A DNA stretch of 64,000 nt from a virus (IMGVR_UViG_3300032272_000002:105743-169742), one strand, 5' to 3'; numbered from the stretch's first letter, positions 1 through 63,989 are shown. Notes: generated by a model from the sequence alone, not told the origin. Translations and numbers: made by a program.

Positions 1-632
1 TCTGCAATCAAGAACACGTTCGCCTTACGACACTCGCGAATCGCAGTGAATTGCGGTACACCAAAGCCAGTCTTAATACGTGTGGAGCACACGCTACCAG
101 GACCCACGCCAACCTTGATAGCATCAGCTCCCTTATCGGCGAGGTATTCAGCACCAGTAGCATGACACACGTTACCGCCGATGATGAATACCGAGCTGTC
201 AAACTCTTTCATCGCCGTAATCATATGCCCCACCGGCTTACTGTGGCCGTGAGCCACATCCACGCAGAAATACCTGGCACCCACTTCGTAAAGTGCATGA
301 AAACGATCAAGCCCTTCATTGACACCAAGTGATACCACGGCTTCTTGACGCATCGGACGCTCGTTAGGAATAACGCGGTGAGGAGCCACGGCCTCCTCAT
401 ACATAGTTACATTATCTTCAATAGAACAAAAGCGATGCAGAAAGCCCAGGCCACCCCTTGCTCGCATCGTGCGGGACATGATGGAGCCTGTCACCGTGTC
501 CATATTAGCTGAAAAAATTGGAGCAGCCAACGTAAGGTCTCCAAACTGAACACTAGTGTTCACGTCTTTGCGGCTCGCAATATTATTGTATCGCGGGACT
601 AGCTGGATATCGTCGAAGGATAGGGCTTTCAT
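1..632 (-). CDS. IMP dehydrogenase / GMP reductase family protein (CBS-less), 3' end outside window
   Basis: Not in the ORF track because it has no stop in the window. Manual translation from the ATG at 632 (ATGA overlap with the upstream gene) gives [13 protein letters not shown]...[11 protein letters not shown]...VDVAHGHS...GGNV...[26 protein letters not shown], which contains the catalytic Cys loop of the IMPDH/GMPR family. guaB versus guaC cannot be resolved. Confidence 0.9.
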
Positions 633-1327
633 TTGCGTCTCATCAAATACTCAGCCAACGGCTGAATGTGGTCTTGCGGCGTACTGCCGTCTGCTTCGAA
701 TACTTGGCCAACAAAATTGCAGCCATCCCGCTCGGTAGGGAACGGAAGCCTGTGTGATTCAAGTGCAAAAAACTCATCGTGGACCATCGCGTCGTCAACG
801 ACGCGAGGATATACTACTGCTTTGAGAAAATCTTGATCTGTCTGCCAACGATCTTCCTGATTCCAAGCAGACATAAGGTCTCTAAAAATAGGCAGACAAT
901 CTTTCTTCATGCCCCACATACCACCAAGGATCTGAGTCCCGTGATAAGGGTGGTCACGCATAATATGAAAGCCTTTATCGCTATCGAGCCATTCTTGAAC
1001 GGCTAGTGCTTCCCGCTCACTAAGGCGTGAATCGGTATCACGCAGAATCACGGCATCAAACTTGTTCTGACACACTGGCAAGAAACGCCAAAACATTCCA
1101 CGCCAATCTCCGCGAGCTTCCATTGAGATAATACGAGACAACTCATTTACCTCTCGGATCTGTTGCAAGTACGGCTCTAGTACGGGAGTTTCTTCACAGT
1201 GACCAGAGACGTGAAACCAACACTCCCAGTCAGGATAAAACTCTTTAGCAAGACGAGCGTTCTCAACCGCCCCCTGCAAGTATTTGGGATCATCGCCCCA
1301 GAAGCTAAAGCTAATTATCTTCTTCAT
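629..1327 (-). CDS. putative GT-A-like glycosyltransferase
   Basis: ISFSFWG N-terminus, MFWRF, DxD motif (RDTDSR), HIMRDHPYH, GGMWG and DQDFL; lies in the GT cluster. Confidence 0.6.
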   Translation of the reverse strand: MKKIISFSFWGDDPKYLQGAVENARLAKEFYPDWECWFHVSGHCEETPVLEPYLQQIREVNELSRIISMEARGDWRGMFWRFLPVCQNKFDAVILRDTDSRLSEREALAVQEWLDSDKGFHIMRDHPYHGTQILGGMWGMKKDCLPIFRDLMSAWNQEDRWQTDQDFLKAVVYPRVVDDAMVHDEFFALESHRLPFPTERDGCNFVGQVFEADGSTPQDHIQPLAEYLMRRK

Positions 1328-2429
1328 CTAAAATCCACTGATACATACTGCCTAATTTACTAGCAATACAAGAAGCTTCAAAATCACGCATGGCACGGCG
1401 GCGGGCCTCGCGGCCAAAGTGCTCTCGTACATTGGCGTGTTCTACTAACTGACCTAGCACCTTAGCGTAACCATCAGTATCGCCCACGGGGACACAGAAG
1501 CCGCCCGACTCGATGATCTCTGCTTGACCATTGTAGGTGCCAGAGTAATGTGAGACAATAGGAAGGCCGTGCATCATGGCCTCTTGAATATTACAGGGAC
1601 AACACTCGCCATCGCTACGGGCGTGAGCATAGATGTCCAGGCCCATGTAGAATTCGGACAGCTCGTCGTCCTCAATGATGGGGCCCAGGAAGTGGACATT
1701 ATCTAATCTCAAATTCTTGGCCATCTGACGCCAGTTGTCACAAGGGTTAACTACAAGGTAAAATGCCTTGTCCGAATCAACCTTCTTGAGAGCCTGGAGG
1801 GCGATAGGATCAAAGTTGTCAGCTCTACCTACGCGGCCCATAATCACAGCATCATTAGGCATACCGAAACGACGCAATAGCTTCTCTCTACATGCTAAAC
1901 GATTCTCTGGTGTCATATCTAGCACTGGTAATTCAATAGGATTAAAGAGGACGGGGCCTTCTTGGTTGCCAGCCTTGAGTGCTGAGTTCTTGATAAATTC
2001 AGAAATATAGATATTCAAATCAATCTGGCTGGGATTGGTTGCGTCGTTAAAGCCAAAGATGTTGGTCTCTACCCACTTCGCTCGCGGACAGATACTACGT
2101 ACCGCTGGCCATTCCGCAAACCCGCTACGATGAACGTGAATGATGTCTGGATCAATATCTTCTAATACTTGATCTAGGTTGTGGGCTTCAGGCAGATAGG
2201 GTGCGACCTTACCTGAGCGACCTGGCACCCACTTGTAAGGAATAACGTGATCCTCTCCTAGCCAACCCTGGACAATCTCTAGACGCTCGTTCTTGTCGCA
2301 TTCTCTATAAACGATATATACGTCAAACCTATCGTCTTGGGCGAGGTACTTACACATGAGCTGGGCCGTTCTGTCTGTGCCAGCAAAGCCCACGCTTTTA
2401 CTATGATGTACAATTTTGATCTTATCCAC
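1311..2429 (-). CDS. GT-B (GT4-like) glycosyltransferase
   Basis: N-terminal GFAGTDR; C-terminal DIYAHARSDGECCPCNIQEAMMHGLPIVS (E-x7-E motif) and GGFCVP. Confidence 0.88.
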   Translation of the reverse strand: MDKIKIVHHSKSVGFAGTDRTAQLMCKYLAQDDRFDVYIVYRECDKNERLEIVQGWLGEDHVIPYKWVPGRSGKVAPYLPEAHNLDQVLEDIDPDIIHVHRSGFAEWPAVRSICPRAKWVETNIFGFNDATNPSQIDLNIYISEFIKNSALKAGNQEGPVLFNPIELPVLDMTPENRLACREKLLRRFGMPNDAVIMGRVGRADNFDPIALQALKKVDSDKAFYLVVNPCDNWRQMAKNLRLDNVHFLGPIIEDDELSEFYMGLDIYAHARSDGECCPCNIQEAMMHGLPIVSHYSGTYNGQAEIIESGGFCVPVGDTDGYAKVLGQLVEHANVREHFGREARRRAMRDFEASCIASKLGSMYQWILDEEDN

Positions 2430-3504
2430 TTACTACCTCTCGATAAATGCTCTCTAATTTTTTAACGCAAGCAGAGACGTGGTATTGCTCTTTGGCCTTA
2501 CGCACACCCTCTACCCCCATACTGACACGGAGAGCTGGGTCGTCAATGAGTTTCTTGAGTGCTTCTGCGTATTCGCTTACGTCGTTCTCGACAATAAAAC
2601 CTGTCTTGTCATGGTCTACTAATTGAGTCTGTGACTGAAAAACTCCCATGCCGGGAAAGCTCGGCGTAGCCCAATGTGTCACGACTGGTTTAGCATGAAT
2701 CATGGCCTCAGCAATGTTAACCCCAAACGTCTCTCCGTCCGCTCGTGCGTGTGCATAGATATCTACCGTATTGTAGAATTGACTAAGTACTGACGCAGTA
2801 GTGGTCGGGGAAATAGTGTGAAAAGGGATATCATACTTAGCAAGGTCATCGATCATGTTGGACGGCGGGGCCACCACTAAGAAATGAATCGGGTACCCCT
2901 GCATTCTGAGTAGATGAGCAGCACGCACGCTGACCGAATTATAGATACCATTGTCGGGGCGGCCACAACGACCAAGAACAATGGCGTCATCAGGAATGTC
3001 TAGTCCAAGCATCACTTGAGATGCGGGATCCTCCACGGGGTTATTCACAAAGTCAAAGCGTCTGGCGGGCATGTTATGTCCGACACCGTTTAATTGAGAT
3101 AGAGAATAATTCATTAGCCACTCGCTCATATATAGCGTGCGGTCAATCCTGGGGTTAGGGTCGATGTGCCCGAACACATTTGTCTCTACAAAGTGCGGGA
3201 CCTGAACGTGGAGACCGGGCTCGGGAAACTGCTCGAAGCCGCTGCGGTAGACATGCAGAATATCAAATCCATTCTGGTAAATAACGTCCTGTAGATCGGC
3301 ACTGCTCTGTAGGGGGAACAGGCTGCCGCGACACACTTTGGACGCCATAACGAACTCGTCGAGCCGCGTCATGTCTGCGTCGGCCTTATACGCTACGCCA
3401 ACCTCGAACTGGGTAGAGGAAGAGTGCTCAAAGAATAGCTGAGCAGTCTTAGTCGTACCGCCAAGATCTAGGTTGTCTAGGTAGTGTAGTACCTTGATTT
3501 TCAT
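2422..3504 (-). CDS. GT-B (GT4-like) glycosyltransferase, paralogue of 1311..2429
   Basis: LDLGGT, ETFGVNIAEAMIHAKPVV, TGFIV. Start placed at 3504 (ATGA overlap with the upstream stop). Confidence 0.9.
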   Translation of the reverse strand: MKIKVLHYLDNLDLGGTTKTAQLFFEHSSSTQFEVGVAYKADADMTRLDEFVMASKVCRGSLFPLQSSADLQDVIYQNGFDILHVYRSGFEQFPEPGLHVQVPHFVETNVFGHIDPNPRIDRTLYMSEWLMNYSLSQLNGVGHNMPARRFDFVNNPVEDPASQVMLGLDIPDDAIVLGRCGRPDNGIYNSVSVRAAHLLRMQGYPIHFLVVAPPSNMIDDLAKYDIPFHTISPTTTASVLSQFYNTVDIYAHARADGETFGVNIAEAMIHAKPVVTHWATPSFPGMGVFQSQTQLVDHDKTGFIVENDVSEYAEALKKLIDDPALRVSMGVEGVRKAKEQYHVSACVKKLESIYREVVSG

Positions 3505-4334
3505 TTCCATTTCTTTCCTGTGTGCATATGTGCTACCCACTCATCCTTAGATGGCCTCTCATCAAACTCTTTGAACTCTTTAGCATGCTTAAGATGATTC
3601 AGGAAATTGTGAGGATAAAACTCTGAGATGGACGAGTAGGTCTCCCAGTTGTTGGCCCACTTATTGCTGTTCTCGATGGAATCAGGACGCTGCACATAGA
3701 TCGTTAAGATCTCCTGCACTGATAAGCCCTCGTACCCCTGGTTCATAAAGTAAAGCCAGAGCCAGTAGTCAAATGCGGAACGATACTCGGCTGCACGCAC
3801 ATGCATCAGCTCCCAGTTGAGTGAGTCGCGGAACTCTTGGTCGTTACGCCACACCACCTGTGGGCCGCCCCAGCACTCACGAGTCATTACCTCGTAATCC
3901 CAGGCGGGCTTGATGCCACCGGCCACGGTCTTACCGGACTCGTCCACAACGTGGATGCCACCGTAGGCAAAACCCAGCTTACCGAGAAGCTCAACATTCC
4001 GCTGCTCGAACTGTTCGCTCATAACCTCTGTGAAGCGAGGATAGTGTAAGTCGTCTGTATTGCTATTACATACTAAGGGTGCGGACGCCGCCTTCCACGC
4101 ACGCAGCCAAGATTCACCATACCACTCACGTTCGTTGTGATATATGTACTTGACACGCTCGTCGGCTGCTTCCCACTTACGGGCGATCATGTCGTCCGTG
4201 CCTGGTGAGTTAGGGTTAACGATTATGATCTCAAAATTGGGATCAGTCTGACCCTCTAGTAAATTGGTCATATGACGATCAAGGAAATGACCGGAATCAT
4301 ATGTAGAAACTAGGTAAGAAATTTTAGGGTTCAT
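3501..4334 (-). CDS. GT-A (GT2-like) glycosyltransferase
   Basis: KISYLVSTYDS, FEIIIVN.NSPG, NSNTDD (DxD-like) and FDYWLWL. Confidence 0.85.
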   Translation of the reverse strand: MNPKISYLVSTYDSGHFLDRHMTNLLEGQTDPNFEIIIVNPNSPGTDDMIARKWEAADERVKYIYHNEREWYGESWLRAWKAASAPLVCNSNTDDLHYPRFTEVMSEQFEQRNVELLGKLGFAYGGIHVVDESGKTVAGGIKPAWDYEVMTRECWGGPQVVWRNDQEFRDSLNWELMHVRAAEYRSAFDYWLWLYFMNQGYEGLSVQEILTIYVQRPDSIENSNKWANNWETYSSISEFYPHNFLNHLKHAKEFKEFDERPSKDEWVAHMHTGKKWK

Positions 4335-5350
4335 ACTTCTACGCCGTTATGATAAGTATTCATAAACGGCTGTGACTGCTTCGTCATGCAGAGATAGATA
4401 TTGCCATAGTCCTGCTCTGCTAGCACTTGCTTGTAGAACGGATCTTCTGACCATAGCTCCTCATTGGGATAGTGGGTTGACGGCACATTTGCAATCGGGT
4501 GACCACTCATGATTTCAGGATGCTCTCCATCAAAGAATAGCAGCGGCTCAGTCTTGGCGAACCAGTCCTTGATCTTCTGATCGAACTTGGCATTAGCCCC
4601 ACCGTGAGCTGCTAGCTCTTTGGTGTAGTATTCCTGCTTACGCTTCATGACTTCATCCATATTCATACGGGCATAGCCATAGTGGTAGATGAACATGGGG
4701 ACACGCATCATGCCACGACGTGATTGATAGTGTGGCGAGAAGTAAGTACAGTGACCTGTCTCGTCGGTTACGACGGGGTGACTATTATACTTCATATTGC
4801 GACCACGCTTGAAGATGCGTTGATGCTGCGGCTGCCACTCAGGGCCAGGCACGGCAACGTGCTTGAAGTCGCGATAGAAGTGCAGGAACGTCGGCACGAA
4901 CTCGCAGATATGCGGGTGCAACTCAATAGCTTCCCTCAGCCTGCGAATATCAGCAGGCTGATAGAATTCGTCCGCATCATTGATGATTAGCCAGTCACCG
5001 GGGAATGACATATCAATGAACGTTTGCTTGATCTCTTCCAAGTTCTTCCAGGGCTTCTTGATCTGGAGAAAGACAACCTTCTTGTCGGGGTCGTGGTTCT
5101 CTTTGAAGTCCTTGATAATATCCACGGTCTTATCTGTCGAGTGGCCATCCTCTGTCGAGTTCGGTCGGTTCTCCACGGCACCCTCGATTACGATGATACG
5201 ATCTACCTCGTCATAGATGGAGCGTAGCACAAGCGGGGCGAACTCCTCCTCGTTGTGCATCTGAATACACTGGACAAGACGGGCGGGATTATTGACACGC
5301 TCAGCGATGGAGGCCATCTGCGGTACATAGATAGGCTGTTGTTGGTTCAT
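4331..5350 (-). CDS. GT-A (GT2-like) glycosyltransferase
   Basis: HNEEE, STDKT, DWLIINDADEF, RIFK and IYHYGY motifs. Confidence 0.85.
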   Translation of the reverse strand: MNQQQPIYVPQMASIAERVNNPARLVQCIQMHNEEEFAPLVLRSIYDEVDRIIVIEGAVENRPNSTEDGHSTDKTVDIIKDFKENHDPDKKVVFLQIKKPWKNLEEIKQTFIDMSFPGDWLIINDADEFYQPADIRRLREAIELHPHICEFVPTFLHFYRDFKHVAVPGPEWQPQHQRIFKRGRNMKYNSHPVVTDETGHCTYFSPHYQSRRGMMRVPMFIYHYGYARMNMDEVMKRKQEYYTKELAAHGGANAKFDQKIKDWFAKTEPLLFFDGEHPEIMSGHPIANVPSTHYPNEELWSEDPFYKQVLAEQDYGNIYLCMTKQSQPFMNTYHNGVEV

Positions 5351-5757
5351 AGTGCTCCTCCTAAATCGAAGCTATTTGTTACGGGTTCTGGCTCAGGAAT
5401 TTCTGGCTTAATATATGTACTAAGGGTCTTAACATCATCGGGAACGGTGTCGGTATAACACGTAATGTCAAGACTAATATCATGGTCTACCGAAATGAGA
5501 ACAGGTTGCATCTGACCAATAACTTGTTGCGTAACGTGATTCATAGAACAATGAATATCTAGCTTGGTGATCTGCATTCCATTGTTTGATAAGTACTCAA
5601 TGATTCGATCCTTATCTAGCTCGGCGTTATCAAGACCGTGAGCTTGAATGTCTGAAGTCGGACATTGGTCTACTGCCATACTAACGCTCTCGCTAGTTAT
5701 GGCATAACCAAGATTGTTTAGTAACACGTCAACAGTCTCCGGTAAAAGATTACTCAC
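5347..5757 (-). CDS. hypothetical protein ending FDLGGAL
   Basis: GTGA/ATGA coupling at both ends; upstream Shine-Dalgarno GGTGGAG. Confidence 0.75.
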   Translation of the reverse strand: MSNLLPETVDVLLNNLGYAITSESVSMAVDQCPTSDIQAHGLDNAELDKDRIIEYLSNNGMQITKLDIHCSMNHVTQQVIGQMQPVLISVDHDISLDITCYTDTVPDDVKTLSTYIKPEIPEPEPVTNSFDLGGAL

Positions 5758-6140
5758 AGTGCTCCACCGATTTCAAAGTCGTCATCCTCTTCTTCTACTT
5801 CGATAGAAGGCAGATCAATTCCGTGTCCGATTAACTTCCAGACACCGCCCTCAAACCGTTCAATCGTATTGGCTTCTTCATTGAATCGAAGAGCACCCTC
5901 GAATTCAAGACCATCAATCTGAATAATACCAGGAGTATTGATAGTGATACCAGTAGATGCTGGAAAAACAAATGGCGGCTGATTCAAAGGGTCAGGCGGG
6001 GGCCACTGAAAGCTATTAGGATCACCGCCAGTATTGTCTACGTATCTCCACTCAGGATTAACTCCCGTGCCGTCATGAAACGGCACGTCTTGCGGGTCTC
6101 CCGCTGAAAAACTCACGCTATTAGAATAGCTTACACTCAT
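5754..6140 (-). CDS. hypothetical protein with a tail-fibre-like motif, ending FEIGGAL
   Basis: Coupled overlaps at both ends; contains GALRFNEEANTIERFEGGVW. Confidence 0.75.
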   Translation of the reverse strand: MSVSYSNSVSFSAGDPQDVPFHDGTGVNPEWRYVDNTGGDPNSFQWPPPDPLNQPPFVFPASTGITINTPGIIQIDGLEFEGALRFNEEANTIERFEGGVWKLIGHGIDLPSIEVEEEDDDFEIGGAL

Positions 6141-6355
6141 AATGCTCCCCTTAAAGTAAAGACTTCTTCTTCTTCTGGAAGTTCCTCCATCAAGTCTTCA
6201 AAGCAACACTTGTTAAGTAACTTAGAAAACTCTAGCATAGATTCAGACGCCTGCTCCATCGTCAAACCCAGTTTGCGTAGATTCTGGCTCAGCTCCAATA
6301 TGTACTGGTGTGTCTGCTGCTGGCTGTTCTTGGGTGAAGATAATTGGTTCTCCAT
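6137..6355 (-). CDS. small acidic protein ending FTLRGAL (true start probably 6259 or 6238)
   Basis: Fills the gap 6137-6242, its stop overlaps the next ATG, and it has the same C-terminal motif as the two downstream ORFs. Confidence 0.55.
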   Translation of the reverse strand: MENQLSSPKNSQQQTHQYILELSQNLRKLGLTMEQASESMLEFSKLLNKCCFEDLMEELPEEEEVFTLRGAL

Positions 6356-7538
6356 TACTATACTGCTCCAAAATTTTCTCTAACTGAGGGGTAATCTTAT
6401 CATGAGTATCCTCATAATGGAAAGATGCTACCGCCTTGCGGCCATTCTCCTGCCGTTGCAGGACAGCATTCCACTCCTCTTGTTCCTCTGCCGTCAGAGT
6501 ATTCTGCATGGCTTTCCTGCGAAGCGTGTGGTATTTACGCATCAAGAAGGCCATCTGAACGGGGGACGGTTCGAAGCACTGCTCAACGCCAGTGAACAAA
6601 CCGGGGTCAGGATGATGCATGTCGAAGAAGAACGACTCAGAGCCACCATAGACCAAGGCGTGCTCGGGTCTCACAAAACCCTCAAGTCCGCTGCTCATAT
6701 TCGAGATCAAAACGTTGCCGTGACCTAGTGCGTCGAAAGGAGGAATACCCCAGCCCTCAGCACGAGACGAGCAAACGTATGCATGGCCACGATTATGTAG
6801 TCCATGAATCTCATCATCCGTCATGATGTCAACAATCGGCAGAACAGGCGGCAGCTTAGGTGCGGGGATACGACAGCCCTGCTTAATCTGTGCGATATAA
6901 TTCTTGATCGTTGCCATGTCCTGAGAACGATCTTGCATATTGATGTAAGTCTTAAGCACAAGCAAGACATCATCAGGAGCATCAGCAAAGGCAGCAAAGT
7001 AAGCTTTCAATAAAGCGTCTACTCCCTTCTTCGCTGACAATTGACAGATAGAATAGAAAACAGTGCGGTCTCCAGCGTTCTCTAATTTGAAGGGCGGGTA
7101 CTGCTTATCATACACTGCGAAATCGCAGGGCGGTGGAATCACTAGGATCGGCTTGGTGACACCCGAACGCATTAGGGCTTCGGCGTTGTGGCGACAGGGC
7201 ACAAGTAGGAAGTCAAACTCATTGGCCTTCTGTGCCCAGGTCATTTGTAGGCGATCACTCTCAAAGAACGTATAAAGTCCATTACAAATACCCGGAATAG
7301 GTACAGCTTCGACATTACACGTAGTCATCTGGATTGCCATGTCAACATCTTGCAAATCCTTTTTTAGTAAAGTGTCCAGCCACGGTTCGGGTACGAATGC
7401 GGTGTCTGCCCTGTCGTACTTGATGGGGCGAGCAGTCAATTCTATAGACTTTGAGGCGTGGAGGGCTCTTAAAAAGTTGCGTGAAGCGTGTGCAAAGCCG
7501 CTAAAGTCCAATAAAGGACCCGTAAATAGTAATTTCAT
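6243..7538 (-). CDS. GT-B (GT4-like) glycosyltransferase
   Basis: SGFAHASRN, KKGVDALLKAY and SSRAEGWGIPPFDALGHG; TAATG overlap gives the start at 7538. Confidence 0.88.
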   Translation of the reverse strand: MKLLFTGPLLDFSGFAHASRNFLRALHASKSIELTARPIKYDRADTAFVPEPWLDTLLKKDLQDVDMAIQMTTCNVEAVPIPGICNGLYTFFESDRLQMTWAQKANEFDFLLVPCRHNAEALMRSGVTKPILVIPPPCDFAVYDKQYPPFKLENAGDRTVFYSICQLSAKKGVDALLKAYFAAFADAPDDVLLVLKTYINMQDRSQDMATIKNYIAQIKQGCRIPAPKLPPVLPIVDIMTDDEIHGLHNRGHAYVCSSRAEGWGIPPFDALGHGNVLISNMSSGLEGFVRPEHALVYGGSESFFFDMHHPDPGLFTGVEQCFEPSPVQMAFLMRKYHTLRRKAMQNTLTAEEQEEWNAVLQRQENGRKAVASFHYEDTHDKITPQLEKILEQYSNGEPIIFTQEQPAADTPVHIGAEPESTQTGFDDGAGV

Positions 7539-9361
7539 TATACCCACTCCTGATTTGTTGCTGCCTGCGGGGCGGAAGGCTGTTGTCCAGCGATTGCCGC
7601 ACGAACATCTTGGCGGCGACGATCCGAATCGGCTTGCTGATTACCGATAGCAATAAACTGTTGTAATAGATTGTCGCGAGAGGTGCCACCGGCCAAGTGT
7701 TGTAACCACATCTTGGCACCAGCGGGATCAATCGCCGGATACTCTAGAACGTCTGTGTACAACCAGTCAACAAACTGTTCGTCAGTAAGACCATCGGGGA
7801 CGGGCTTAGAGTCAACGGTGGGGGCCGTCACAATGGGGCTATCCCATGTGTTTTCACGATCCAGCGGCTTAATTTGATCTAGGACAAACTCCCACTGTTT
7901 CCATAGCTCGTTCCAGTCGTAATTATCCTCCACACACTTACGGGCTTCGCCACTAAGCTTTTGACGTAGGGCTGTATCGGTCACCCATTCGTGCAGCTTG
8001 TCAGCAAGCTGATCGATGTTGGGCAACGCTCTCTTGCACGAGGTCTCGGGCTCGTAGTAATAACGGTCCACCTCAATCGAGCCGCCGCCCTTGTGGCAGC
8101 CATACTCCTCTGCTGAAATACCGCTCTCCTTTAAGTGAGAGTATTCTGCGGGGAACCTGCCCTTCTCTGCCATGGCCGTGTAATCCACAACAAGCGTGGG
8201 AACACCACAAGCCTTGGCTTCTTGGATGGGCATGCCATCACCTTCGCAGATGGAGCACTGCACGTAGATGTCCATAGCATTATACAGGCTGGCCAGTTCT
8301 TCTCGGGTATATCCCAAAGAGGTGTTCGGAGGCGAGCACTCTTGAGCACCACAATGAGGGCAGGGAAGCTTGATGCGACCGCCCTCTAGGGGACGATTCC
8401 AAAGATGGATAGCAAATGTGATAGACGTTTCGCCACAGGCTCCACACTTCATGGACTGTAAAACATCTCCACGAATACCCTTGCGTGCATTCTCCATCCA
8501 CTCATAAGAATCCAGACGCATGACGTGTCGCGGATAATCAAACGAATGTGCGTTGTCGGGCCACGACGAATGAATCATCAACACAGCCTTGTCCACCGCA
8601 TCATCACCCTTATACTTAATCTTCATGCGAGAGAACGCATCAATTAGATCAGGATAAAGTTTACGACTCTGGTTACGCATAACCGTACCGATCACCACAT
8701 TCTCAGACGTGAGATTGAAGTGTGCCTTGGCGTCTGCCTTGACGATAGGCTTGAACGTCGCAAGGTCTACACCAGGCCGCATCGGCTTGGGTAGAATCTT
8801 CATCTTGGGACGCACGCCTTGCTGGGTAGGGATTTGACTGGTCTGACGACGCAGCGTATGAATGCCATAATCAGAATAACAGAGAACTACGTTCGCGTTT
8901 TCATAGGTTTGAACCCACTCCTCTTGCTGAGGCTCAGCGTCCACAGTGGGCATGACTACCCACTTAAACCAATCGCGGAACACGCTTCTCTCCTGAAACT
9001 CAAGCATCCACCAGTCGCGAATATCTACCACGATATCAGGCTGGAAGTCAGCACAGGCTCCCTCGAATTTCCACTCACCAAACTGGTTGGTGTTCTGACC
9101 CCGCGTACGAGGATGAGGATTGGGCTGAGAAAAAACCTGTTGTTCTTCTGGGGTAGTCGGCATAGTGCCATAGAACTTCCAGCGACCATCAATAAACTCC
9201 GCTACGCGGGGATCATCTTGGCGAGCATATGAACCAAGCTCTGCAATTTCATACTTGCCAGTCTCTACTAGACGTGGTAATAGTTCTCGGTAGTAAGTAG
9301 AAAAACCAGTATGTAAAAAACTGGCTTCTCCTACGAATAGGATTCTCTTTTTTCTTTCCAT
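7538..9361 (-). CDS. GT-B (GT4-like) glycosyltransferase with Zn-ribbon insert and C-terminal DUF4214-like domain
   Basis: TGFSTY, MRNQSRK, LYNAMDIYVQCSICEGDGMPIQEAKACGVP; CxxC...CxxC insert; C-terminal TDEQFVDWLY..VL...DPAG..W...L..G.SR. Confidence 0.88.
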   Translation of the reverse strand: MERKKRILFVGEASFLHTGFSTYYRELLPRLVETGKYEIAELGSYARQDDPRVAEFIDGRWKFYGTMPTTPEEQQVFSQPNPHPRTRGQNTNQFGEWKFEGACADFQPDIVVDIRDWWMLEFQERSVFRDWFKWVVMPTVDAEPQQEEWVQTYENANVVLCYSDYGIHTLRRQTSQIPTQQGVRPKMKILPKPMRPGVDLATFKPIVKADAKAHFNLTSENVVIGTVMRNQSRKLYPDLIDAFSRMKIKYKGDDAVDKAVLMIHSSWPDNAHSFDYPRHVMRLDSYEWMENARKGIRGDVLQSMKCGACGETSITFAIHLWNRPLEGGRIKLPCPHCGAQECSPPNTSLGYTREELASLYNAMDIYVQCSICEGDGMPIQEAKACGVPTLVVDYTAMAEKGRFPAEYSHLKESGISAEEYGCHKGGGSIEVDRYYYEPETSCKRALPNIDQLADKLHEWVTDTALRQKLSGEARKCVEDNYDWNELWKQWEFVLDQIKPLDRENTWDSPIVTAPTVDSKPVPDGLTDEQFVDWLYTDVLEYPAIDPAGAKMWLQHLAGGTSRDNLLQQFIAIGNQQADSDRRRQDVRAAIAGQQPSAPQAATNQEWV

Positions 9362-9363: not shown

Positions 9364-10020
9364 TCAGACGATATTCTGGATAGCAATTCTAATACGCGAT
9401 TTCAAACTAGACTCTAAATTATAGAACTTCTTAACCGAAATATCCATTTCGTCAGCCATCTCTTTGGCCGACTTATCGCCCAAAATACGTTCACGTAAAA
9501 TCCGGCTGTCAGTGTCATTTTGCACAACGGATTCTAGGAACTGTTCGATGTATAGCGACTCCGGAATTTCTTCTGGTTCAACTTCCATAGACACAGCATG
9601 ACGGCGAGTGTACGCAAGCCTCAAATCATATACCTTGTTCTCCGTCCAGGCACGCCCAGGGTATCTTTCATTGAGGATGGCAGCAATCTCGACATCCGTC
9701 TTACCAGCCTCTACAAACTTATTAATTTTAGCTCCCATTTCTGTCACACGATGGTCAACCGTGAACACGCCTAGGAAGCGGGCGGCTTCATTATAGATGT
9801 CTTGTCTTACACAACTACAAACATAAGATTTGATATTACGTCCACAGGTGGGGTCATAGGTACGGAGTGCTCGAAGCACTGCGAGTTGCCCGACTTGGAA
9901 TAAATCATCTACACAGATCGATGGCGAAGAGGTTACGGCAGTGTATGCGACCTTGCGAATAAAGCCAGCGTAACCTTCTAGTGCCCGTAATAGTTCCTCG
10001 TCATTCAGTGTCATAGTCAT
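9364..10020 (-). CDS. phage sigma-70-family RNA polymerase sigma factor
   Basis: Region 2 DDLFQVGQLAVLRALRTYDP..G....SY; region 4 HTH SAKEMADEMDISVKK. Start estimated at 10020 or 10014. Confidence 0.85.
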   Translation of the reverse strand: MTMTLNDEELLRALEGYAGFIRKVAYTAVTSSPSICVDDLFQVGQLAVLRALRTYDPTCGRNIKSYVCSCVRQDIYNEAARFLGVFTVDHRVTEMGAKINKFVEAGKTDVEIAAILNERYPGRAWTENKVYDLRLAYTRRHAVSMEVEPEEIPESLYIEQFLESVVQNDTDSRILRERILGDKSAKEMADEMDISVKKFYNLESSLKSRIRIAIQNIV

Positions 10021-10384
10021 GGGGTCGATCCATAATCTTAATGAACCCATCTGCTGATTGGGTCACTAGAATAATCTCACGTTGTTCACTTTCGTCAACC
10101 CCTGCTTCTCTATTTATTTCATTATCTAGAGATCCCAAGACATTAATTAAGCGGCCACGTAGGCCACCCTCATCTTGACAGCGGGCAATGTAGTGAGCAA
10201 AGGAGCCTAGAGCAACTACCTTACGAAAGATGGATCGTACTTCGATGTCTTTCGATTTGCGATAGCCGATGTTGCAGGCGATAGTAAAGATAGCACGAGA
10301 TGTGCGGTCAGCGTCTTCTAGGTTATAAAACTTAGCATCGCCAGTGGCACGGCCCATGAGTTGCACACGGGCGTAATCATACAT
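10001..10384 (-). CDS. ssb: single-stranded DNA-binding protein (OB fold)
   Basis: VQLMGRATGD, FTIACN, VVALG..A and G.LINVLGSL match the SSB OB-fold pattern; next to dnaE. Confidence 0.7.
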   Translation of the reverse strand: MYDYARVQLMGRATGDAKFYNLEDADRTSRAIFTIACNIGYRKSKDIEVRSIFRKVVALGSFAHYIARCQDEGGLRGRLINVLGSLDNEINREAGVDESEQREIILVTQSADGFIKIMDRPHDYDTE

Positions 10385-51858: not shown

Positions 51859-51859
51859 T

Positions 51860-51896
51860 AAAAAAGGCGGCAGGCCACCAAAGGTGACCTACCGCC
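51860..51896 (-). terminator. Rho-independent terminator after the major capsid gene
   Basis: GGCGGTAGGTCACC-ttt-GGTGGCCTGCCGCC then TTTTTT. Confidence 0.92.
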
Positions 51897-51918
51897 AGTA
51901 CTAGGTTACTGACAAATT

Positions 51919-52950: not shown

Positions 52951-52964
52951 TAGAATACCTCCTT

Positions 52965-57041: not shown

Positions 57042-59396
57042 TCATGATTGCCTGTTGAGTCCAAGCTGATACCATAAATTGACGACGAAGCTCTCTCGAT
57101 GGAGACTTCCCGTAAGTTTTACTGTACTCGGCAATCTTGTCAGTATAAATAGTAAGCACATAGCCTTCACTCCATGTGCCGCATCCGACTGCAACATGGT
57201 TACAATAAAGTCATCCTTAAGAATGTCAGAGTCATGCTCAAGAGGCATATGACTAAAGACGTTATAGATTAAGTTCTCCAGTCTTTCTCTGTCATCCTTG
57301 CGAAGCTGCTTCACATGTTGAATGCGAGCATAGTCTGGATTAGCCTTAGCAATATTCTGTACAATTTTTTCATTACAGAAACCTTCAATCTGGTCAAGCC
57401 ACGTACGGGCACGAGAACCTAGCTGTTCACTCAGCTCCAAGATCTCTGCCACGTTCTGACCCTTCGGCCCACGCGGGGCAGACTGCTTGCCGGTCGGGCC
57501 AGTAGAAGTATTGCCAGGACGGCCATTCGGCTTGGCTGGCTTCTTAGCTCCAGGAGGACCACCAGGCTTAGCAACAGGATCCGGCTTTTCGAACGGACCC
57601 TTCCGCTCCATGATGCCGCCCTTCTTGACGAGATCTTTCTCTTCCTTCTTCTTGGCCTCTTGCATCTCTGTGCTGGTGCCGATTTCATCAAGCACATCAT
57701 CAGCAGAAAGAATGTTGCGGTCATATAGTGCAAGCAAGAACGTCTGGCGAGCTTTCTCATCCTTAAGTGTAGTGTGATCGAACTTGACATCAGGCAGCTT
57801 GCGGAAGCCCATCGCATCAGAGATGATCTTCAATTCTCCCATCAGCCAGTTCAACACTTCTTCCCTATACGATTCGAGCTTTTCAAGAACGCCCGCTACA
57901 GCAATGTAGGAGTTAGAGAAGTTACCGCCCTTACCACCCAAAAGTACATCGGGAACACCGAGAGCTTGAAGAATATCACGATCAGCCGACTCGTGCTTCT
58001 TGGGGTCAAAGATCCCGGCCACATCAGGTTGTAGTACTTCGCCGTCGATAAGGTCGTTCCAAATTACATAACCAACGTTCGCGGGCATTTGCAGCATATC
58101 AGCGAAACGTTCAAAGTGTTCGTCTTCTGCCGGGAAGCCTTCCTTCAGGTTACCAAGCTTGAAAAGATAAAGAGCATTCATAACGGACTGGCAAGCCTTA
58201 GCTTCCATGTTACGAAGACAGTCCTTAAAGGATAGTGCTCTCAAAGACGGGAATACAAAGGGTACGCCCCAAGCGAACCAATCGAACTTTCCGGGACGTT
58301 GTACGACAGATAGCTCTTCTTTACTGAGCTTGACTTCGGCGGCATATGCACCACCAGGGCCTTGATACTTACCTACGCGGCGGACAAACTCTTTCGGAAG
58401 GTTGACCTCAGTCTTGCCGATATCGACAAAGCTCTTCAGGCCCATACCGCGAGCTAGCTCTAGCGTATCTCTCTTGTCGAGAGCCATGGCCCAATAATTA
58501 TTACCCTGAACACGACTACCACGCACTTCCATCTGAAGCGGGTTCAAGAATGTGTAGCCCCACGGGATACGCTTCTTTTTGTTCTCAGGCTCATGCTCTT
58601 CTTTTGGAGAAAGAGGTGCGGCGTTCGCCGTCTTATTTTTAGACACTAACGATTCTTGTCTTGAGAGGAACCAGTCTACAAATCCATCATCGTTCTTGCC
58701 GACAGCCTTGTCGGTAGTCTTCAACTTCATAAACAGTTCATCGTTAATAACAATCGAGGCATCTGAACGCTTCATATTTCTCTTGTCTGCGTCGGACAGC
58801 TTGGCCCAACGACGATGGACAAAAGAGTTACCTGATACAAATAGGTTAATGAACATACTGTGAATACGTTCTTTTAAACATACTTTCTCAGCCCACGCCT
58901 TGTAGAAGTTACGCACACTCTTGTCGGTGTGGTAAATATCAATACCCTCTGTGGCGAAGTCGGCGTATAGATCAATGATGTTTTGGACTACTCCGTAGCC
59001 CAGATATGCCATCGTACACATCGCGATGACCTGATGGTTCCAGGCGTCATTGCTAGAGAATCTTTTAACATACTGGAATCCGCCAGCCCCGCCTTGTGAC
59101 TGGACGCTGGAGAACATGCGATCTACGCCATTCAGTAGGCCCGTTCCATAGTAGTTACCTGGCCCAGAAGAGGAGTAGGAGCTACCAGCACCAAAGGATC
59201 CCTGGAGACCATCGTAGCCGCCGCCGAGCATTCCGCCACCACCCTCGGGCAGACGACGCTCGACGCTATCGCCAAGATTTCCATAAAAATAACCCTGGGC
59301 TTTATCCTGAGAGTTCGCACGGGCATTGGCTCTCATCATAGTAGACGGATCAGCCGCTTTCGGTGACGAACCTTGAGTTTTGTTCTTGTGAGGCAT
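57042..59396 (-). CDS. portal protein (C-terminus possibly frameshifted)
   Basis: Follows terL; VQNIIDLYADF..EG, IPWGYTFLNP, PF....L..L..K, I..ALGVP..L.GG...NFSN, LYDRNILS. Confidence 0.85.
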   Translation of the reverse strand: MPHKNKTQGSSPKAADPSTMMRANARANSQDKAQGYFYGNLGDSVERRLPEGGGGMLGGGYDGLQGSFGAGSSYSSSGPGNYYGTGLLNGVDRMFSSVQSQGGAGGFQYVKRFSSNDAWNHQVIAMCTMAYLGYGVVQNIIDLYADFATEGIDIYHTDKSVRNFYKAWAEKVCLKERIHSMFINLFVSGNSFVHRRWAKLSDADKRNMKRSDASIVINDELFMKLKTTDKAVGKNDDGFVDWFLSRQESLVSKNKTANAAPLSPKEEHEPENKKKRIPWGYTFLNPLQMEVRGSRVQGNNYWAMALDKRDTLELARGMGLKSFVDIGKTEVNLPKEFVRRVGKYQGPGGAYAAEVKLSKEELSVVQRPGKFDWFAWGVPFVFPSLRALSFKDCLRNMEAKACQSVMNALYLFKLGNLKEGFPAEDEHFERFADMLQMPANVGYVIWNDLIDGEVLQPDVAGIFDPKKHESADRDILQALGVPDVLLGGKGGNFSNSYIAVAGVLEKLESYREEVLNWLMGELKIISDAMGFRKLPDVKFDHTTLKDEKARQTFLLALYDRNILSADDVLDEIGTSTEMQEAKKKEEKDLVKKGGIMERKGPFEKPDPVAKPGGPPGAKKPAKPNGRPGNTSTGPTGKQSAPRGPKGQNVAEILELSEQLGSRARTWLDQIEGFCNEKIVQNIAKANPDYARIQHVKQLRKDDRERLENLIYNVFSHMPLEHDSDILKDDFIVTMLQSDAAHGVKAMCLLFILTRLPSTVKLTGSLHRESFVVNLWYQLGLNRQS

Positions 59397-59453: not shown

Positions 59454-59461
59454 TACACTAA
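59454..59461 (-). promoter_or_regulatory. TTAGTGTA candidate late promoter (copy 7)
   Basis: TTAGTG-TATTGG upstream of the portal gene; its TAG is the terL stop codon. Confidence 0.65.
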
Positions 59462-61494
59462 GCATTGGGGTTGTACCATGCAGCACCACCCCTTTTCTGA
59501 ATTCCTTTAGCATTACGTCTAATGCCTGGACCTTCCCCGCCTGGGATACCTGCCTGCGGGCGATGACCGTGGCCAAGATAAACCTTAGCGGCATAATTGG
59601 CCAGCATCAATGCAGACCAACGGTCACGACGACGCATGTCAAGTCCTTCGGGCTGTTCGGACAGCTTGGGTAATTCAAATCGCTCATTACCTGTTGGCGT
59701 GACATCACGCACGATAGCACAGGTCTCATTGATACATTCGTCAATATGTTGCATTACGCCAAGCTTGGGCTTACCGTTGACTAGATCAGCTTCCCAATCA
59801 TCAACACCCCACAGGTCTTCCTGTAGTTTAATCTTGGCGGAATCTGCCAACTTGTCAATGACAAAGTGACGCATATATTGGTGATACCCCTCTTCTGCAA
59901 CTGCTTTATACGGAAACATCAAATTACACTGCTCAATCGACGAGGCCAGGGCGTGGGCGGCGTTGGTTGACCAGGCAGTAAAGTTAACCATCTCAAGAAT
60001 CTTGCGACCCGGAGCACCGAGGTCACTCTTCTCTCCGTACTTGGGGATCTGGTCTGGGATAACCCAGATAAGATCTTTCTCTGCTACGTCTTCCTGTTTT
60101 TTACAGAGCCACTCATATACAGCATCACCACCACCGCCTTGGTCCATCGCGATGTACTGGATATTAAATCGTGTACACACTTCTCTCAGCTTCTTGGCGG
60201 TAACATTATACTGTGTCTTCTCCCAAGCATCACAGTAGACTAACTCCTTACCACGATCTGTTAATTTTAGAACAACAACAGCAATATTGTCATTGTGGCG
60301 AGCAGGGTCAACGCCCATAACATATGAGGCTCGCGGATCACCATACAGTTCTACGTGAACGGGGGCACTACCCCATTTGTCACGAGGAGTAGCACGCTCA
60401 ATCCATGAGCGACGAATGAAACCATTGGAATCATCCGGAAACTTAGCCTCATACTCCATCTCGAAGCGATACTTCGGAAATGATGCACGGTCAGAACGAA
60501 TCTGGTCTTCATCAAGGAAGCCTTCGGGGATACCTTGATATGGTAATTGATAGATAGAGTACTGTCCCCAGATACGAGACATAGACTCCACGTCTCGCTT
60601 GTCAATTGTATCTACACGACCAGTGGTCTGGAGAGCACGCTCTTCTAGTGCTCTCTTGATCTTGATAGGGTCTCCACCAGACTCAATGAACATCTTGTAA
60701 ACGCAATAACGTTTGTAGAAGTGATTCTGTTTGTGAGACGGCGTACCAGATAGGATAATCTGGTTACCAAAGCCCTGAGAGTGTCGGATCAAATCCGTCA
60801 GCTTCTTACCAGCACCAAGATCTTGAAGACGCTTGGCGAACTTCATAATCTCAGCACGTTCAGCAGGGTTAGCGTGTACAGCCGTGAAAGGAGCGATAAC
60901 GATATCGAAGATCTCTTCGGGGATAGACGCAAACTCGTCAGCGATCAGTACGGTAGCACGAAGACCACGAATCTTCTCACCATCACCAATGGGGATGGCC
61001 GTGATAGTTGACAGACCCATCTGAAGGGTCGCCGCATCAGAGCCATACTTGGGTCGTTCGGCACTGCCAACAGCTTCCTGGATAAGTGGAGAAGCATTGT
61101 ACAGTTCTTCAATGTATTTGAAGACAAGCTTCGCCTGACGGAAACCAGCACCTACAATAACGATCTTTGAGCCGGGTACTAGAATAGCTTTCAATACGCA
61201 GTATAGTCCCAGCATGAAAGTCTTGCCAGCACCACGAGATGCCAAAATCATCGGGAACTTCTTAGTCCACAAGCTATCAAGCATAACCATTTGGAACGGC
61301 TGTAGCTTAAGCGGCTTACCTTGCTTATTTCTAAAACACTTCTCTACAAACCAAGCAAGCGAAAACTGTGCTCCGTGATATACACTTTCTAGAGGGCCAG
61401 TATCGTCAAAGACATTATATACATCTTCACTATTAAAGTCCGTATGCCAGTATGTTCCACGAATCCTGCGAATTGTTTGGGCATTAAGCACCAT
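59458..61494 (-). CDS. terL: terminase large subunit
   Basis: LQPFQ, Walker A SRGAGKT, Walker B LIADEF, ILSGT, FEMEY.A.F, nuclease MGVDPA and DRWSAL. Confidence 0.93.
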   Translation of the reverse strand: MVLNAQTIRRIRGTYWHTDFNSEDVYNVFDDTGPLESVYHGAQFSLAWFVEKCFRNKQGKPLKLQPFQMVMLDSLWTKKFPMILASRGAGKTFMLGLYCVLKAILVPGSKIVIVGAGFRQAKLVFKYIEELYNASPLIQEAVGSAERPKYGSDAATLQMGLSTITAIPIGDGEKIRGLRATVLIADEFASIPEEIFDIVIAPFTAVHANPAERAEIMKFAKRLQDLGAGKKLTDLIRHSQGFGNQIILSGTPSHKQNHFYKRYCVYKMFIESGGDPIKIKRALEERALQTTGRVDTIDKRDVESMSRIWGQYSIYQLPYQGIPEGFLDEDQIRSDRASFPKYRFEMEYEAKFPDDSNGFIRRSWIERATPRDKWGSAPVHVELYGDPRASYVMGVDPARHNDNIAVVVLKLTDRGKELVYCDAWEKTQYNVTAKKLREVCTRFNIQYIAMDQGGGGDAVYEWLCKKQEDVAEKDLIWVIPDQIPKYGEKSDLGAPGRKILEMVNFTAWSTNAAHALASSIEQCNLMFPYKAVAEEGYHQYMRHFVIDKLADSAKIKLQEDLWGVDDWEADLVNGKPKLGVMQHIDECINETCAIVRDVTPTGNERFELPKLSEQPEGLDMRRRDRWSALMLANYAAKVYLGHGHRPQAGIPGGEGPGIRRNAKGIQKRGGAAWYNPNA

Positions 61495-62258: not shown

Positions 62259-62260
62259 GG

Positions 62261-63070
62261 TTAACCTCCTTTGGTTGGGCTTTGCCCAATGTGATAATAA
62301 AGCTCTTCTCCGATATGAGCGGTCGCTGCATCAGTAGCAGCAATACGCTGTTGCATCACGGTCTCTCCGTGACGTGGGTCATATCCAACGGGGGCTTCCG
62401 GTAGAGGACCGACTGTTCTCCAAAGCTGCTTCCTAGTCAGATTTGGATTGTGATTATAACCGTTGGGAAACTCAGAGATCCAATAGCGATGTCCGCTCTT
62501 GGTGTGCTCTTCCCACTTACCAATTCCAGCTTTGGCTAGAGCGTCGTCGCTACAAGACCATGGGCTGTATTCTGCTTTACCTAGACCCCAATTTTCTTTA
62601 GGATCATAGATTGCTCTCATTTGAATGATACCAACGTCATCACGCTCTTCAAAGATCTCTTTAGCCGTACCAAAGAAATTGAAATGAGGAATGACGTTTA
62701 GCCAATCGTTTTCGTGAACCATGCAATATTCACCACGCGATAAAGACCATAGCTGATTTAGGCCGTTATTAATACCATAGTTTGTTTGACGTACAACTAC
62801 TTTTCGCTCCAGCTCTAAATCCATGAAATACTGATATGTCCTGTCGCATTTGCCCTGCTCCAGAAACACCCACTCAATTTCGCCAGCGTACCGCTCTGCG
62901 GCCTGCAAAGTAGAATCAAGCGAACGGATAGTGTTCTCGGGACGCCCGCAGGAGAGAACAAGGACCGATATTAGCCCAGGCTCGCAATGCGTGTCGTATT
63001 CCTTGTAAGCCTGCTTGGTATAATCCCAGCGAGACTGTCCGTTTTTAAGATGGCGAGACGATGAAGTCAT
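62261..63070 (-). CDS. GT-A (GT2-like) glycosyltransferase
   Basis: ISVLVLSCGRP, NYGINNGLN, RGEYCMVHENDW and YHIG. Confidence 0.8.
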   Translation of the reverse strand: MTSSSRHLKNGQSRWDYTKQAYKEYDTHCEPGLISVLVLSCGRPENTIRSLDSTLQAAERYAGEIEWVFLEQGKCDRTYQYFMDLELERKVVVRQTNYGINNGLNQLWSLSRGEYCMVHENDWLNVIPHFNFFGTAKEIFEERDDVGIIQMRAIYDPKENWGLGKAEYSPWSCSDDALAKAGIGKWEEHTKSGHRYWISEFPNGYNHNPNLTRKQLWRTVGPLPEAPVGYDPRHGETVMQQRIAATDAATAHIGEELYYHIGQSPTKGG

Positions 63071-63989
63071 TTTTTAATTTGTTAATAAGGTCCATAAGAT
63101 TATCAACGCGGTTAGCCACAGTATGATAGTTATGTACCTTAGCGTGACCGTTAGCAGCAATTCTTTCACGTTCTTCCACATGTTCAGTATAATATTTAAT
63201 CTTATTGATGGCGTCTTGTGCATTATCGTAGTACACTATATCTTCTCCATCAATAAACAGTTCTTCAATGCGGGTCTCCTCAGGTAGCCTGTCAGTGATG
63301 ACCATTCGCCCCACTGCCATCCCTTCAAATACCCGTCTCGTAGTCTCACCAAATTGGGAGCACTGGAAAACCATCTTGCCCATCAGTAGACGCTTGGCGT
63401 GGTCTTCACCGAAGAAGTATCGTTCGTTATTGAATCGCTCACCAAGAGCAGCGGCGATCTGAGCCGTGACCTTTCGTCCACCACAGGTAGACACACAGTC
63501 GTATACAGCTTCCACATCATAGTCTGGATGGAAGATGCGATGATCGGCCCAGTGATTCATCCATTCAGCCCTGTGGCCTAAGTGATTGAACATGTCAACC
63601 GAAGGCGAATCGGGCGTTACAATAGCATCAAACTTAGGTGCCTTAGCCGCGTGCATACGGAAACTCTGAGGCGTATCGCCAGCCTCCAAGATAAAGGGCA
63701 CATCGGGAAAGTACTTGGTATCCATTCCGCCATAATCAAATGGGCCATAGTCCATAACCACTACAGCATCAGGACGATATCCTGTCTGGTAGTCTTGATT
63801 GAACTTATTGAAACAGTCCCCCGAATATGTACGTACATTGCGTCCAGGCAAAATTTGCCCATCGTCATGATACAGGTTATAATGATTTACGGAGATACCT
63901 CGTGACTCTAGTTCCCACTTGACACCAAGAGGTGTGCTCCACGGCTCACCATAGTTTTCCCAGCTAGCATAAAATAGTGCGATCTTCAT
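63045..63989 (-). CDS. GT-B glycosyltransferase (Glyco_trans_1_2/CgeB-like)
   Basis: RVFEGMAVGRMVITD, LFIDGEDIVYY, ERERIAANG...V..YHT..NR. Confidence 0.85.
   Translation of the reverse strand: MKIALFYASWENYGEPWSTPLGVKWELESRGISVNHYNLYHDDGQILPGRNVRTYSGDCFNKFNQDYQTGYRPDAVVVMDYGPFDYGGMDTKYFPDVPFILEAGDTPQSFRMHAAKAPKFDAIVTPDSPSVDMFNHLGHRAEWMNHWADHRIFHPDYDVEAVYDCVSTCGGRKVTAQIAAALGERFNNERYFFGEDHAKRLLMGKMVFQCSQFGETTRRVFEGMAVGRMVITDRLPEETRIEELFIDGEDIVYYDNAQDAINKIKYYTEHVEERERIAANGHAKVHNYHTVANRVDNLMDLINKLKNDFIVSPS

Follow-up and report, generated by a model that had tools for sequence, protein, structure and literature searches.

The locus examined here raises the question of whether a phage can coat its own tail with sugar at a short sequence signal. 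The window is the whole 64,000-nucleotide stretch IMGVR_UViG_3300032272_000002:105743-169742, which closes a linear IMG/VR virus contig of 169.7 kb (83% complete by CheckV) from a large, siphovirus-like phage, and its long open reading frames (ORFs) all lie on the minus strand. The original prediction proposed that glycosyltransferases (GTs) encoded here, nine by its count, may glycosylate Ser-Gly (SG) dipeptides in exposed virion proteins. Judged from sequence comparisons, O-glycosylation of the virion, specifically the tail, at an SG sequon is the best single explanation of what we found, and we give it about an even chance.

Of 30 structural-region proteins, PHROGs recognised the tape measure protein (TMP) and portal only. 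Most of the virion roles given here therefore come from gene order and from weak fold matches; the SG-rich proteins are presumed to face outward, consistent with both. The genes concerned are as follows.

21171-27522, minus strand: three distal tail/fibre proteins (1115, 746 and 224 aa), SG 1.6- to 3.3-fold enriched
27519-32603, minus strand: fibre/adhesin of 1694 aa with a ConA-like lectin domain, a 14-aa repeat and two PKD domains
33463-34107, minus strand: tail-tip protein of 214 aa; 5 SG, 3 invariant
34288-34848, minus strand: tail-tip beta-sandwich protein of 186 aa; 6 SG, 4 invariant
34848-36362, minus strand: Dit-like tail hub protein of 504 aa, directly after the TMP; 11 SG
36366-41480, minus strand: TMP, 1704 aa
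41473-42835, minus strand: overlapping ORF pair (42014-42835 and 41473-42123) upstream of the TMP, with a 110-nt overlap
44645-46057, minus strand: likely major tail (tube) protein of 470 aa, assigned by position
46148-47717, minus strand: neck/tail proteins of 341 and 179 aa; SG invariant at 5/5 and 1/1 sites in 11 relatives
50055-53432, minus strand: head-proximal block with proteins of 212, 287 and 155 aa, SG mostly conserved
51919-52950, minus strand: protein resembling a major capsid protein, 343 aa, with zero SG

In nine tail proteins, SG occurred 108 times against 49.2 expected from their own composition (2.2-fold), with 50 GS, whereas the remaining 49 ORFs held 68 SG against 69.4 expected (0.98-fold) and 73 GS. 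The predicted concentration of SG in outward-facing proteins was thus borne out, and comparison with the reversed dipeptide showed the excess to be one-directional, GS standing at 1.0-fold in the tail set and the other ORFs alike. Per-protein shuffles gave z values for SG of up to 5.6 (the 1694-aa protein), and SG was the most enriched of all dipeptides in the tail proteins (z 6.8); Thr-Gly (TG) was depleted there (0.62-fold). In T4, T5 and lambda, tail and fibre proteins taken together reached 1.23-fold for SG and 1.03-fold for GS; this baseline, together with the T5-family conservation described below, ruled out that the excess is a generic property of tail fibres. The ConA-like lectin and the two PKD domains of the 1694-aa protein are those expected of an exposed fibre. 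Ten of its 40 SGs fall in the 14-residue tandem repeat, which was ruled out as the sole source of the excess, since the excess persisted without it. The repeat itself (28206-28649, aa 1319-1466) sits between the lectin-like and PKD parts and comprises ten tandem copies of Y-h-x-G-x4-S-G-h-h-G-G (h, hydrophobic), with 7 of the 10 SG sites kept in all six orthologues.

Conservation of individual sites was measured with relatives from IMG/VR, where they are numerous; the identity of their tube proteins sorts them into a close (72-84%), an intermediate (43-59%) and a distant (30-34%) tier. When the 186-, 504-, 214-, 1694- and 470-aa proteins were aligned with 5-8 close relatives (53% overall identity), the serine of SG was conserved at 84% of sites versus 41% for other serines, and the glycine at 91% versus 65% for other glycines. 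SG ranked first among 157 dipeptides (84% observed, 36% expected), joint conservation of GS was just 38%, and the positions flanking SG were at background level (0.42-0.59). Among single proteins, the 504-aa hub protein kept 9 of 11 SG in all 8 close relatives and one more in 7 of 8, the 1694-aa fibre 31 of 40 in all six orthologues at ~43% identity, and the tube-like protein 6 of 6 in 11 relatives, with sites 149 and 283 retained across most of the superclade. Both SGs of the 155-aa protein beside the capsid-like gene were likewise invariant (11 close relatives). For the 1115-, 746- and 224-aa proteins, compared with relatives G006 and G007, joint conservation of SG was 33-56%, and other serines were 20-25% conserved.

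The constraint was confined to part of the structural region. The tail-internal TMP was SG-depleted (5 observed versus 9.6 expected), and the overlapping ORF pair, which from position and overlap likely encodes tail assembly chaperones and hence proteins outside the virion, conserved 0 of 4 SG in 11 close relatives. A 110-nt overlap directly upstream of the TMP is the layout expected for a frameshifting chaperone pair. Conserved SG was also missing from the 181-aa protein, the 395-aa protein and the 136- and 265-aa proteins near the portal (0/6), and a scaffold-like 609-aa protein kept 1 of 4. The 181-aa ORF (42838-43383), which lies in the tail module, gave a LAGLIDADG homing-endonuclease match at E 9e-4, below the cut-off. 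As for the coat proposed earlier for tail, neck and decoration proteins, SG was constrained in tail, neck and fibre proteins; the capsid-like protein contains none, so a coat, if any, would cover tail and neck and not the whole virion.

The signal acts at the protein level. SG sites were encoded by 21 different hexamers using all six serine codons, and TCN and AGY codon classes were mixed at 9 of 48 invariant sites, which ruled out a DNA motif as their origin. Replication proteins and GTs, taken from the same phages as non-virion controls (54.6% identity, 22 SG sites), conserved the SG serine at 35.5% and the dipeptide at 26%. T5-family tails behaved similarly (T5 and five relatives, 53.7% identity, 22 sites; Aeromonas phage AhSzw-1 was excluded, as its annotation looks frameshift-ridden): SG serine and other serines were equally conserved (44.5%), the dipeptide reached 29%, one SG site was invariant and SG ranked 126th of 206. 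Within the tail proteins of the window lineage, TG was 38% conserved and the classical turn dipeptides NG, DG and PG 53-59%. Together, these controls indicate a constraint specific to Ser-Gly, to virion proteins and to the window lineage.

Conserved sites matched [A/G/P/V]-S-G-[I/V/L]. Position -1 was G, A or P in 58% of sites versus 24% background (p about 1e-9), and position +1 was aliphatic or aromatic in 68% versus 28% (p about 3e-12). AlphaFold2 models of the 504-aa protein (predicted local distance difference test score (pLDDT) 70.5) and the 186-aa protein (pLDDT 62.7) placed 14 of the 17 SG serines in coil, usually with a strand starting 1-2 residues later; of the other three, one sat at the end of a strand and two in predicted helix. 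Every SG site of the 186-aa protein lay in a predicted loop. Loop placement, as the original prediction expected, is therefore largely what these models show, apart from the helical pair. Foldseek found no match for either model at E <= 1e-3; weak matches to Dit and tube folds at about 3e-3 are consistent with gene position.

Such a placement would also suit a different account, in which SG is a lineage-specific structural or assembly motif (a loop-to-strand turn or an oligomerisation contact) unlinked to the GTs, and the GT island remodels host envelope glycans, namely lipopolysaccharide (LPS), capsule or exopolysaccharide (EPS), or builds a free or lipid-linked glycan. This combination is the main rival, and we regard it as unlikely, though a real contender. 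The usual position of SG at a loop-to-strand junction with an aliphatic residue next speaks for it, as do the ten SGs within a structural 14-aa repeat. However, the classical turn dipeptides were far less conserved, and T5-family tails show no comparable constraint. SG serine was seldom replaced by Thr, whereas other serines mostly became Thr or Ala, and hardly ever by Asn or Asp, all of which a turn or cap role would permit. In addition, the motif is present in at least 12 unrelated proteins with different folds.

We then turned to the enzymes. Matches were judged against Pfam gathering cut-offs of 23.3 bits for PF00535 and 26.4 bits for PF00534.

629-1327, minus strand: 232-aa ORF counted as a GT by the original prediction; orthologues adjoin GTs in G006 and G013
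1311-2429, minus strand: GT-B (GT4-like), 372 aa; PF13692 1.3e-12, PF00534 4.8e-12
2422-3540, minus strand: GT-B (GT4-like), 372 aa; PF13692 3.4e-9, PF00534 1.4e-8
3501-4334, minus strand: GT-A (GT2), 277 aa; PF00535 1.8e-13, 51.2 bits
4331-5350, minus strand: GmaR-like GT2, 339 aa; PF00535 8.7e-7, 29.5 bits
6243-7547, minus strand: borderline GT-B, 434 aa; PF00534 1.5e-5, 25.0 bits against the cut-off of 26.4
7538-9361, minus strand: GT-B with a Cys4 insert and DUF4214, 607 aa; PF00534 2.5e-10, DUF4214 1e-7
62261-63070, minus strand: probable GT2 upstream of the terminase, 269 aa; PF00535 2.4e-4, 21.5 bits, below 23.3
63045-63989, minus strand: GT-B-like Glyco_trans_1_2 protein, 314 aa; PF13524 1.3e-23

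Eight of the nine claimed GTs thus have Pfam support, and both GT-A and GT-B folds are present as stated; the ninth, 629-1327, had no match in Pfam, PHROG, NCBIfam or PDB. The GT-B cut-offs were exceeded by 1311-2429, 2422-3540, 7538-9361 and 63045-63989. The borderline GT-B at 6243-7547 rose to 28.3 bits for PF00534 when summed in frame and has consistent orthologues from G006 to G015, and the pair that includes 62261-63070 adjoins the terminase as a conserved unit in G001-G005. The GT2 at 3501-4334, whose sole PDB match was GalT1 (5hea, E 0.005), is likely an elongating enzyme. The 607-aa GT-B is near-universal across the superclade, with an E373-x7-E381 signature and four cysteines invariant in 10 orthologues, and matched generic GT4 enzymes in the PDB, including PBCV-1 B736L and GtfA. 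Its invariant C306, C309, C334 and C337 resemble a zinc-ribbon-type insert, DUF4214 is C-terminal, and homologues reach about 955-963 aa in some relatives. Three small tandem ORFs (136, 128 and 72 aa) split the GT cluster at 5347-6355; they had no detectable orthologues in the regions examined of five close relatives.

The same minus-strand array runs on to the left of the window (G000:C1:94480-105326, locus L019). There it encodes one GT2, two Glyco_trans_1_2 proteins, two methyltransferases, a HAD phosphatase, a sugar nucleotidyltransferase (NTP_transferase), a PF00685 sulfotransferase, an NAD-dependent epimerase/reductase and a GDP-mannose 4,6-dehydratase (E 9e-107); a 499-aa island protein had no match in a PDB search. 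A sulfotransferase within a phage glycan island is unusual. With one more GT2 at C1:67802-68380, the genome holds about 13 GTs (four outside the window) and a GDP-6-deoxyhexose pathway. No ORF of the genome had more than three hydrophobic 19-residue segments, and the TMP alone had three; hence no flippase, polymerase, oligosaccharyltransferase or polyprenyl-phosphate priming enzyme is encoded. Such a gene set speaks against a structural role for SG beside a GT island that acts on envelope or lipid-linked glycans, as no priming phosphoglycosyltransferase, flippase or polymerase is found in the genome. Host enzymes could stand in for the missing lipid-linked or export membrane proteins, and the nearest NCBIfam families, all far below cut-off, are EPS, teichuronic-acid and LPS GTs, in line with that account.

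SG observed/expected ratios in the post-TMP block were compared across the genomes.

Window: 2.15
G006: 2.6
G007: 2.4
G009, G010 and G011: about 1.8
G012, G013, G015 and G016: 0.9-1.6

Consistent with this gradient, homologues of the 504-aa protein carry 2-4 SG in G015 and G016 versus 11-13 in the close clade. At tube-protein site 255 of the distant clade, the glycine is retained and the serine varies. Each clade was also compared with its own members only, and the joint SG conservation observed there was expressed as a multiple of that predicted for independent conservation of S and G.

Window-clade tail proteins: 3.1
Intermediate-clade virion proteins: 2.7
Distant-clade virion proteins: 1.75, with 0/15 sites invariant
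Window-clade non-virion proteins: 0.93
T5-family tail proteins: 0.91

Homologous folds of the distant clade therefore manage without SG enrichment or constraint, which again tells against a structural motif; with the sister-clade folds, the non-virion proteins of the same phages and the T5-family tails all lacking the constraint, SG behaves as a recognised site and not as a folding requirement. Distant-clade head-proximal proteins (L062/L063 648-3212 and L067 3478-6588) show extreme counts of SG and GS alike, for example 42 SG and 45 GS in 854 aa, and are Gly/Ser-rich and of low complexity, unlike the one-directional SG excess.

One enzyme followed the motif. The 339-aa GT2 (4331-5350) was found in every SG-enriched genome tested, including 5/5 intermediate-clade genomes, and was absent from 5/5 distant-clade genomes, four of them complete. 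A profile of 11 orthologues gave GmaR as its only significant PDB match (E 5.5e-6), and D125 and D127 (DxD) and E128 were invariant in these orthologues down to 39% identity. For the other island GT2s, chondroitin synthase, GalT1, PglI and SpsA were the first PDB matches, and GmaR came 18th or was absent. At least 397 homologues of the GmaR-like GT2 occur in public data at E <= 1e-5 under generic names only, the best-scoring ones on phage-sized contigs. As to the wider co-occurrence of GTs and SG, the GmaR-like GT2 tracks SG, while GT presence as such does not discriminate: every relative carries GTs (3 to 12 matches by two Pfam families) and none is GT-free, the comparison being a single phylogenetic split.

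Conservation shows that Ser-Gly is recognised, not by what, which leaves room for another enzyme or factor. In that case, the serine would be a target of phosphorylation, acylation, sulfation, or recognition in assembly or quality control, and the GTs would serve some other end. We consider this improbable. The island does contain a sulfotransferase, methyltransferases and two proteins of unknown function, but the annotated regions yielded neither a kinase nor any other enzyme that modifies proteins, and GTs alone among the enzyme classes are in excess and co-vary with the motif. PF00685 sulfotransferases, moreover, usually act on sugars or small molecules.

The GTs might instead add glycans to the phage's DNA, a hypermodification seen in T-even and other phages, with SG unrelated. 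Glycosylation of DNA by phage GTs is known (Pyle et al. 2024, as cited in PMC12619734), and the GT island runs in the same orientation as the replication and nucleotide-metabolism genes. Against this, no ThyA-like (PF00303) thymidylate-synthase-like hydroxymethylase was matched in the genome (contig 83% complete), which encodes ThyX and a dUTPase instead; 13 GTs with GDP-6-deoxyhexose, methyl and sulfo enzymes go far beyond known DNA-glycosylation modules; and the SG signal would stay unexplained. We consider DNA as the target very improbable.

Expression timing was approached through a recurrent element, TTAGTGTA, present in 7 copies versus 1.7 expected (0/100 shuffles reached 7), all on the gene strand and 25-111 nt upstream of structural genes.

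21931, 33130, 33454, 46138, 51851, 57027 and 59454, gene strand: copies of TTAGTGTA
9364-10050: phage sigma-like protein

The element is likely a late-promoter element, perhaps read by the sigma-like protein. It was absent from the replication block and both GT blocks, so the GTs are probably expressed alongside replication genes. This would be compatible with enzymes made before assembly but lends that idea no positive support; the lack of the late motif over the GT blocks counts in favour of an SG motif unlinked to the GTs.

Besides that timing, several observations weigh against tail O-glycosylation at SG. S306 and S321 of the 504-aa protein are the two serines in predicted helix, in models of moderate quality. 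The SG-poor clade also has at least 3 GTs, and two tube-protein SG sites persist in that clade, which lacks the GmaR-like GT2, as a structural motif would allow. Co-occurrence of the GT2 with SG is suggestive: it amounts to one phylogenetic contrast, confounded with divergence. Similarity to GmaR is limited to the catalytic core, and Pfam detected the GT2 domain only in the 339-aa protein, with no TPR or other substrate-binding domain and no anti-repressor domain. Finally, soluble GTs are equally typical of enzymes acting on lipid-linked host glycans.

With these points taken into account, we still favour tail O-glycosylation; enzyme recognition as the cause of the constraint, a glycan as the modification and the choice of priming GT are all inferred. 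In the proposed mechanism, the phage lineage would encode its own cytoplasmic glycosylation machinery of about 13 soluble GTs, together with a GDP-6-deoxyhexose pathway, an NDP-sugar transferase, methyltransferases and a sulfotransferase. The GmaR-like GT2 (4331-5350) would place the first sugar directly onto the folded protein, at the serine of [A/G/P/V]-S-G-[I/V/L] loops on tail tube, neck, tail-tip and fibre proteins, and the remaining GTs and modifying enzymes would extend and decorate it. Stated in full, the proposal is that a widespread lineage of large aquatic siphoviruses coats tail tube, neck, tip and fibres with a complex phage-made O-glycan at small-Ser-Gly-aliphatic sites through a GmaR-like priming GT2; this fuller version is tentative and falls somewhat short of an even chance. 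Such a glycan would possibly carry deoxyhexose, methyl and sulfate groups.

Other features place the phage more broadly.

57042-59396, minus strand: portal
59458-61494, minus strand: large terminase

The terminase is ~25% identical to those of Bacillus siphoviruses, and a PolIII alpha subunit, a sigma-70-like protein and a GMP reductase are also recognisable in the window. Megablast with 20 kb found no match among GenBank phages, leaving the phage without a close GenBank relative, and a related-locus search with the portal as query returned no relative. L108 (NZ_JAILWB010000012.1), a 157,945-bp contig in a Hydrogenophaga sp. metagenome-assembled genome, has a tube protein 82% identical to that of the window phage and carries the GmaR-like GT2 as well (P0035). 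This contig is probably an entire phage genome, either binned along with Hydrogenophaga sp. or infecting it, and gives a weak host hint. IMG/VR lists one intermediate relative, G008, as a provirus. Papers on Dishui Lake and on 'moraphage' deal with other lineages.

If the proposal is true, each tail-protein set would bear more than 100 glycan sites, and small-Ser-Gly-aliphatic would be the first O-glycosylation sequon defined for a bacterial virus. To our knowledge, virion glycosylation by phage enzymes has been shown for a few mycobacteriophages only, with C-terminal acceptor tails and two or so GTs. In the literature that we could search, we found no relevant account of a Ser-Gly sequon in bacteria or phages, nor of glycosylated tail fibres. 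The system would be a bacterial-virus counterpart of the giant-virus glycosylation machineries; glycosylated phage proteins would become predictable from sequence, and a short tag with its matching enzyme would serve cytoplasmic protein glycoengineering. It would further suggest that sugar-coated tails are common among environmental phages, whether the coat serves shielding, adhesion or stability, since the candidate priming GT by itself has those 397 or more homologues. The hypothesis is open to co-expression and mass spectrometry, for which phage culture is unnecessary.

Among known systems, several resemble this one in part. Animal proteoglycan O-xylosylation (XylT, GT14) uses a Ser-Gly acceptor dipeptide. 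That acceptor is Ser-specific, as here, and the island has a sulfotransferase and a chondroitin-synthase-like GT2. However, no GT14/Branch-domain enzyme (PF02485) was matched in the 170-kb genome (contig 83% complete), and the SG flanks (+-4) are small/aliphatic, with 8.5% D/E versus 11.1% background; the proteoglycan parallel drawn in the original prediction is thus reduced to an analogy. Bacterial autotransporter heptosyltransferases (BAHT; TibC/Aah) and Maf-type flagellin glycosyltransferases are cytoplasmic enzymes that attach sugars to numerous serines, which lie in short loops of folded surface proteins rich in beta structure, but the phage encodes neither family (BAHT, TIGR04414, and Maf, PF01973; 0 matches each). 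Likewise, the priming phosphoglycosyltransferase, flippase and Wzy/O-oligosaccharyltransferase of en-bloc lipid-linked O-glycosylation or polysaccharide export are absent from the phage genome.

In scale and gene content, the island is similar to the autonomous glycosylation machineries of chloroviruses (PBCV-1) and mimiviruses. A large set of soluble GTs, along with GDP-mannose dehydratase, other sugar-nucleotide enzymes of that kind and methyltransferases, lets those viruses coat their virion proteins without host pathways. These are eukaryotic giant viruses with N-linked (chlorovirus) or fibril glycans, and the sequence relation is only at a generic GT4 level. The closest established biology is virion glycosylation in mycobacteriophages Che8, Corndog and Myrna (Freeman et al. 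2023, as described in PMC12363180 and PMC12619734). There, GTs encoded by the phage have been proposed to glycosylate its structural proteins, the tail tube among them, and some GT genes adjoin the structural module. According to the same sources, those phages have few GTs and carry glycans at capsid or tube C-termini, whereas here about 13 GTs and sugar-nucleotide synthesis would serve internal S-G loops. C-terminal acceptor tails of that type are absent from the window's capsid-like protein, with 0 SG and 0 Ser/Thr in its last 30 residues, and from the tube-like protein, which has no Ser/Thr-rich C-terminal tail.

GmaR, the flagellin O-GlcNAc transferase of Listeria monocytogenes (PMC9638930; PDB 22ao), offers a comparison of mechanism. 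As described in PMC9638930, GmaR has 637 aa with TPR and C-terminal anti-repressor domains, and its N-terminal domain puts GlcNAc directly on flagellin; we found no SG preference reported for it there. The similarity to the 339-aa GT2 covers roughly a 115-residue catalytic core and a short second segment, and given its length and the missing TPR and anti-repressor domains, we do not file the GT2 as a GmaR member but only as working like one. GmaR acts on flagellin, whereas tail proteins are the proposed substrate of the window GT2. The shared feature would be a soluble GT-A enzyme that attaches sugar directly onto Ser/Thr of a surface filament protein. By this likeness, direct cytoplasmic O-glycosylation of surface filament proteins, as carried out by GmaR, is the nearest mechanistic analogue of the system that we propose.

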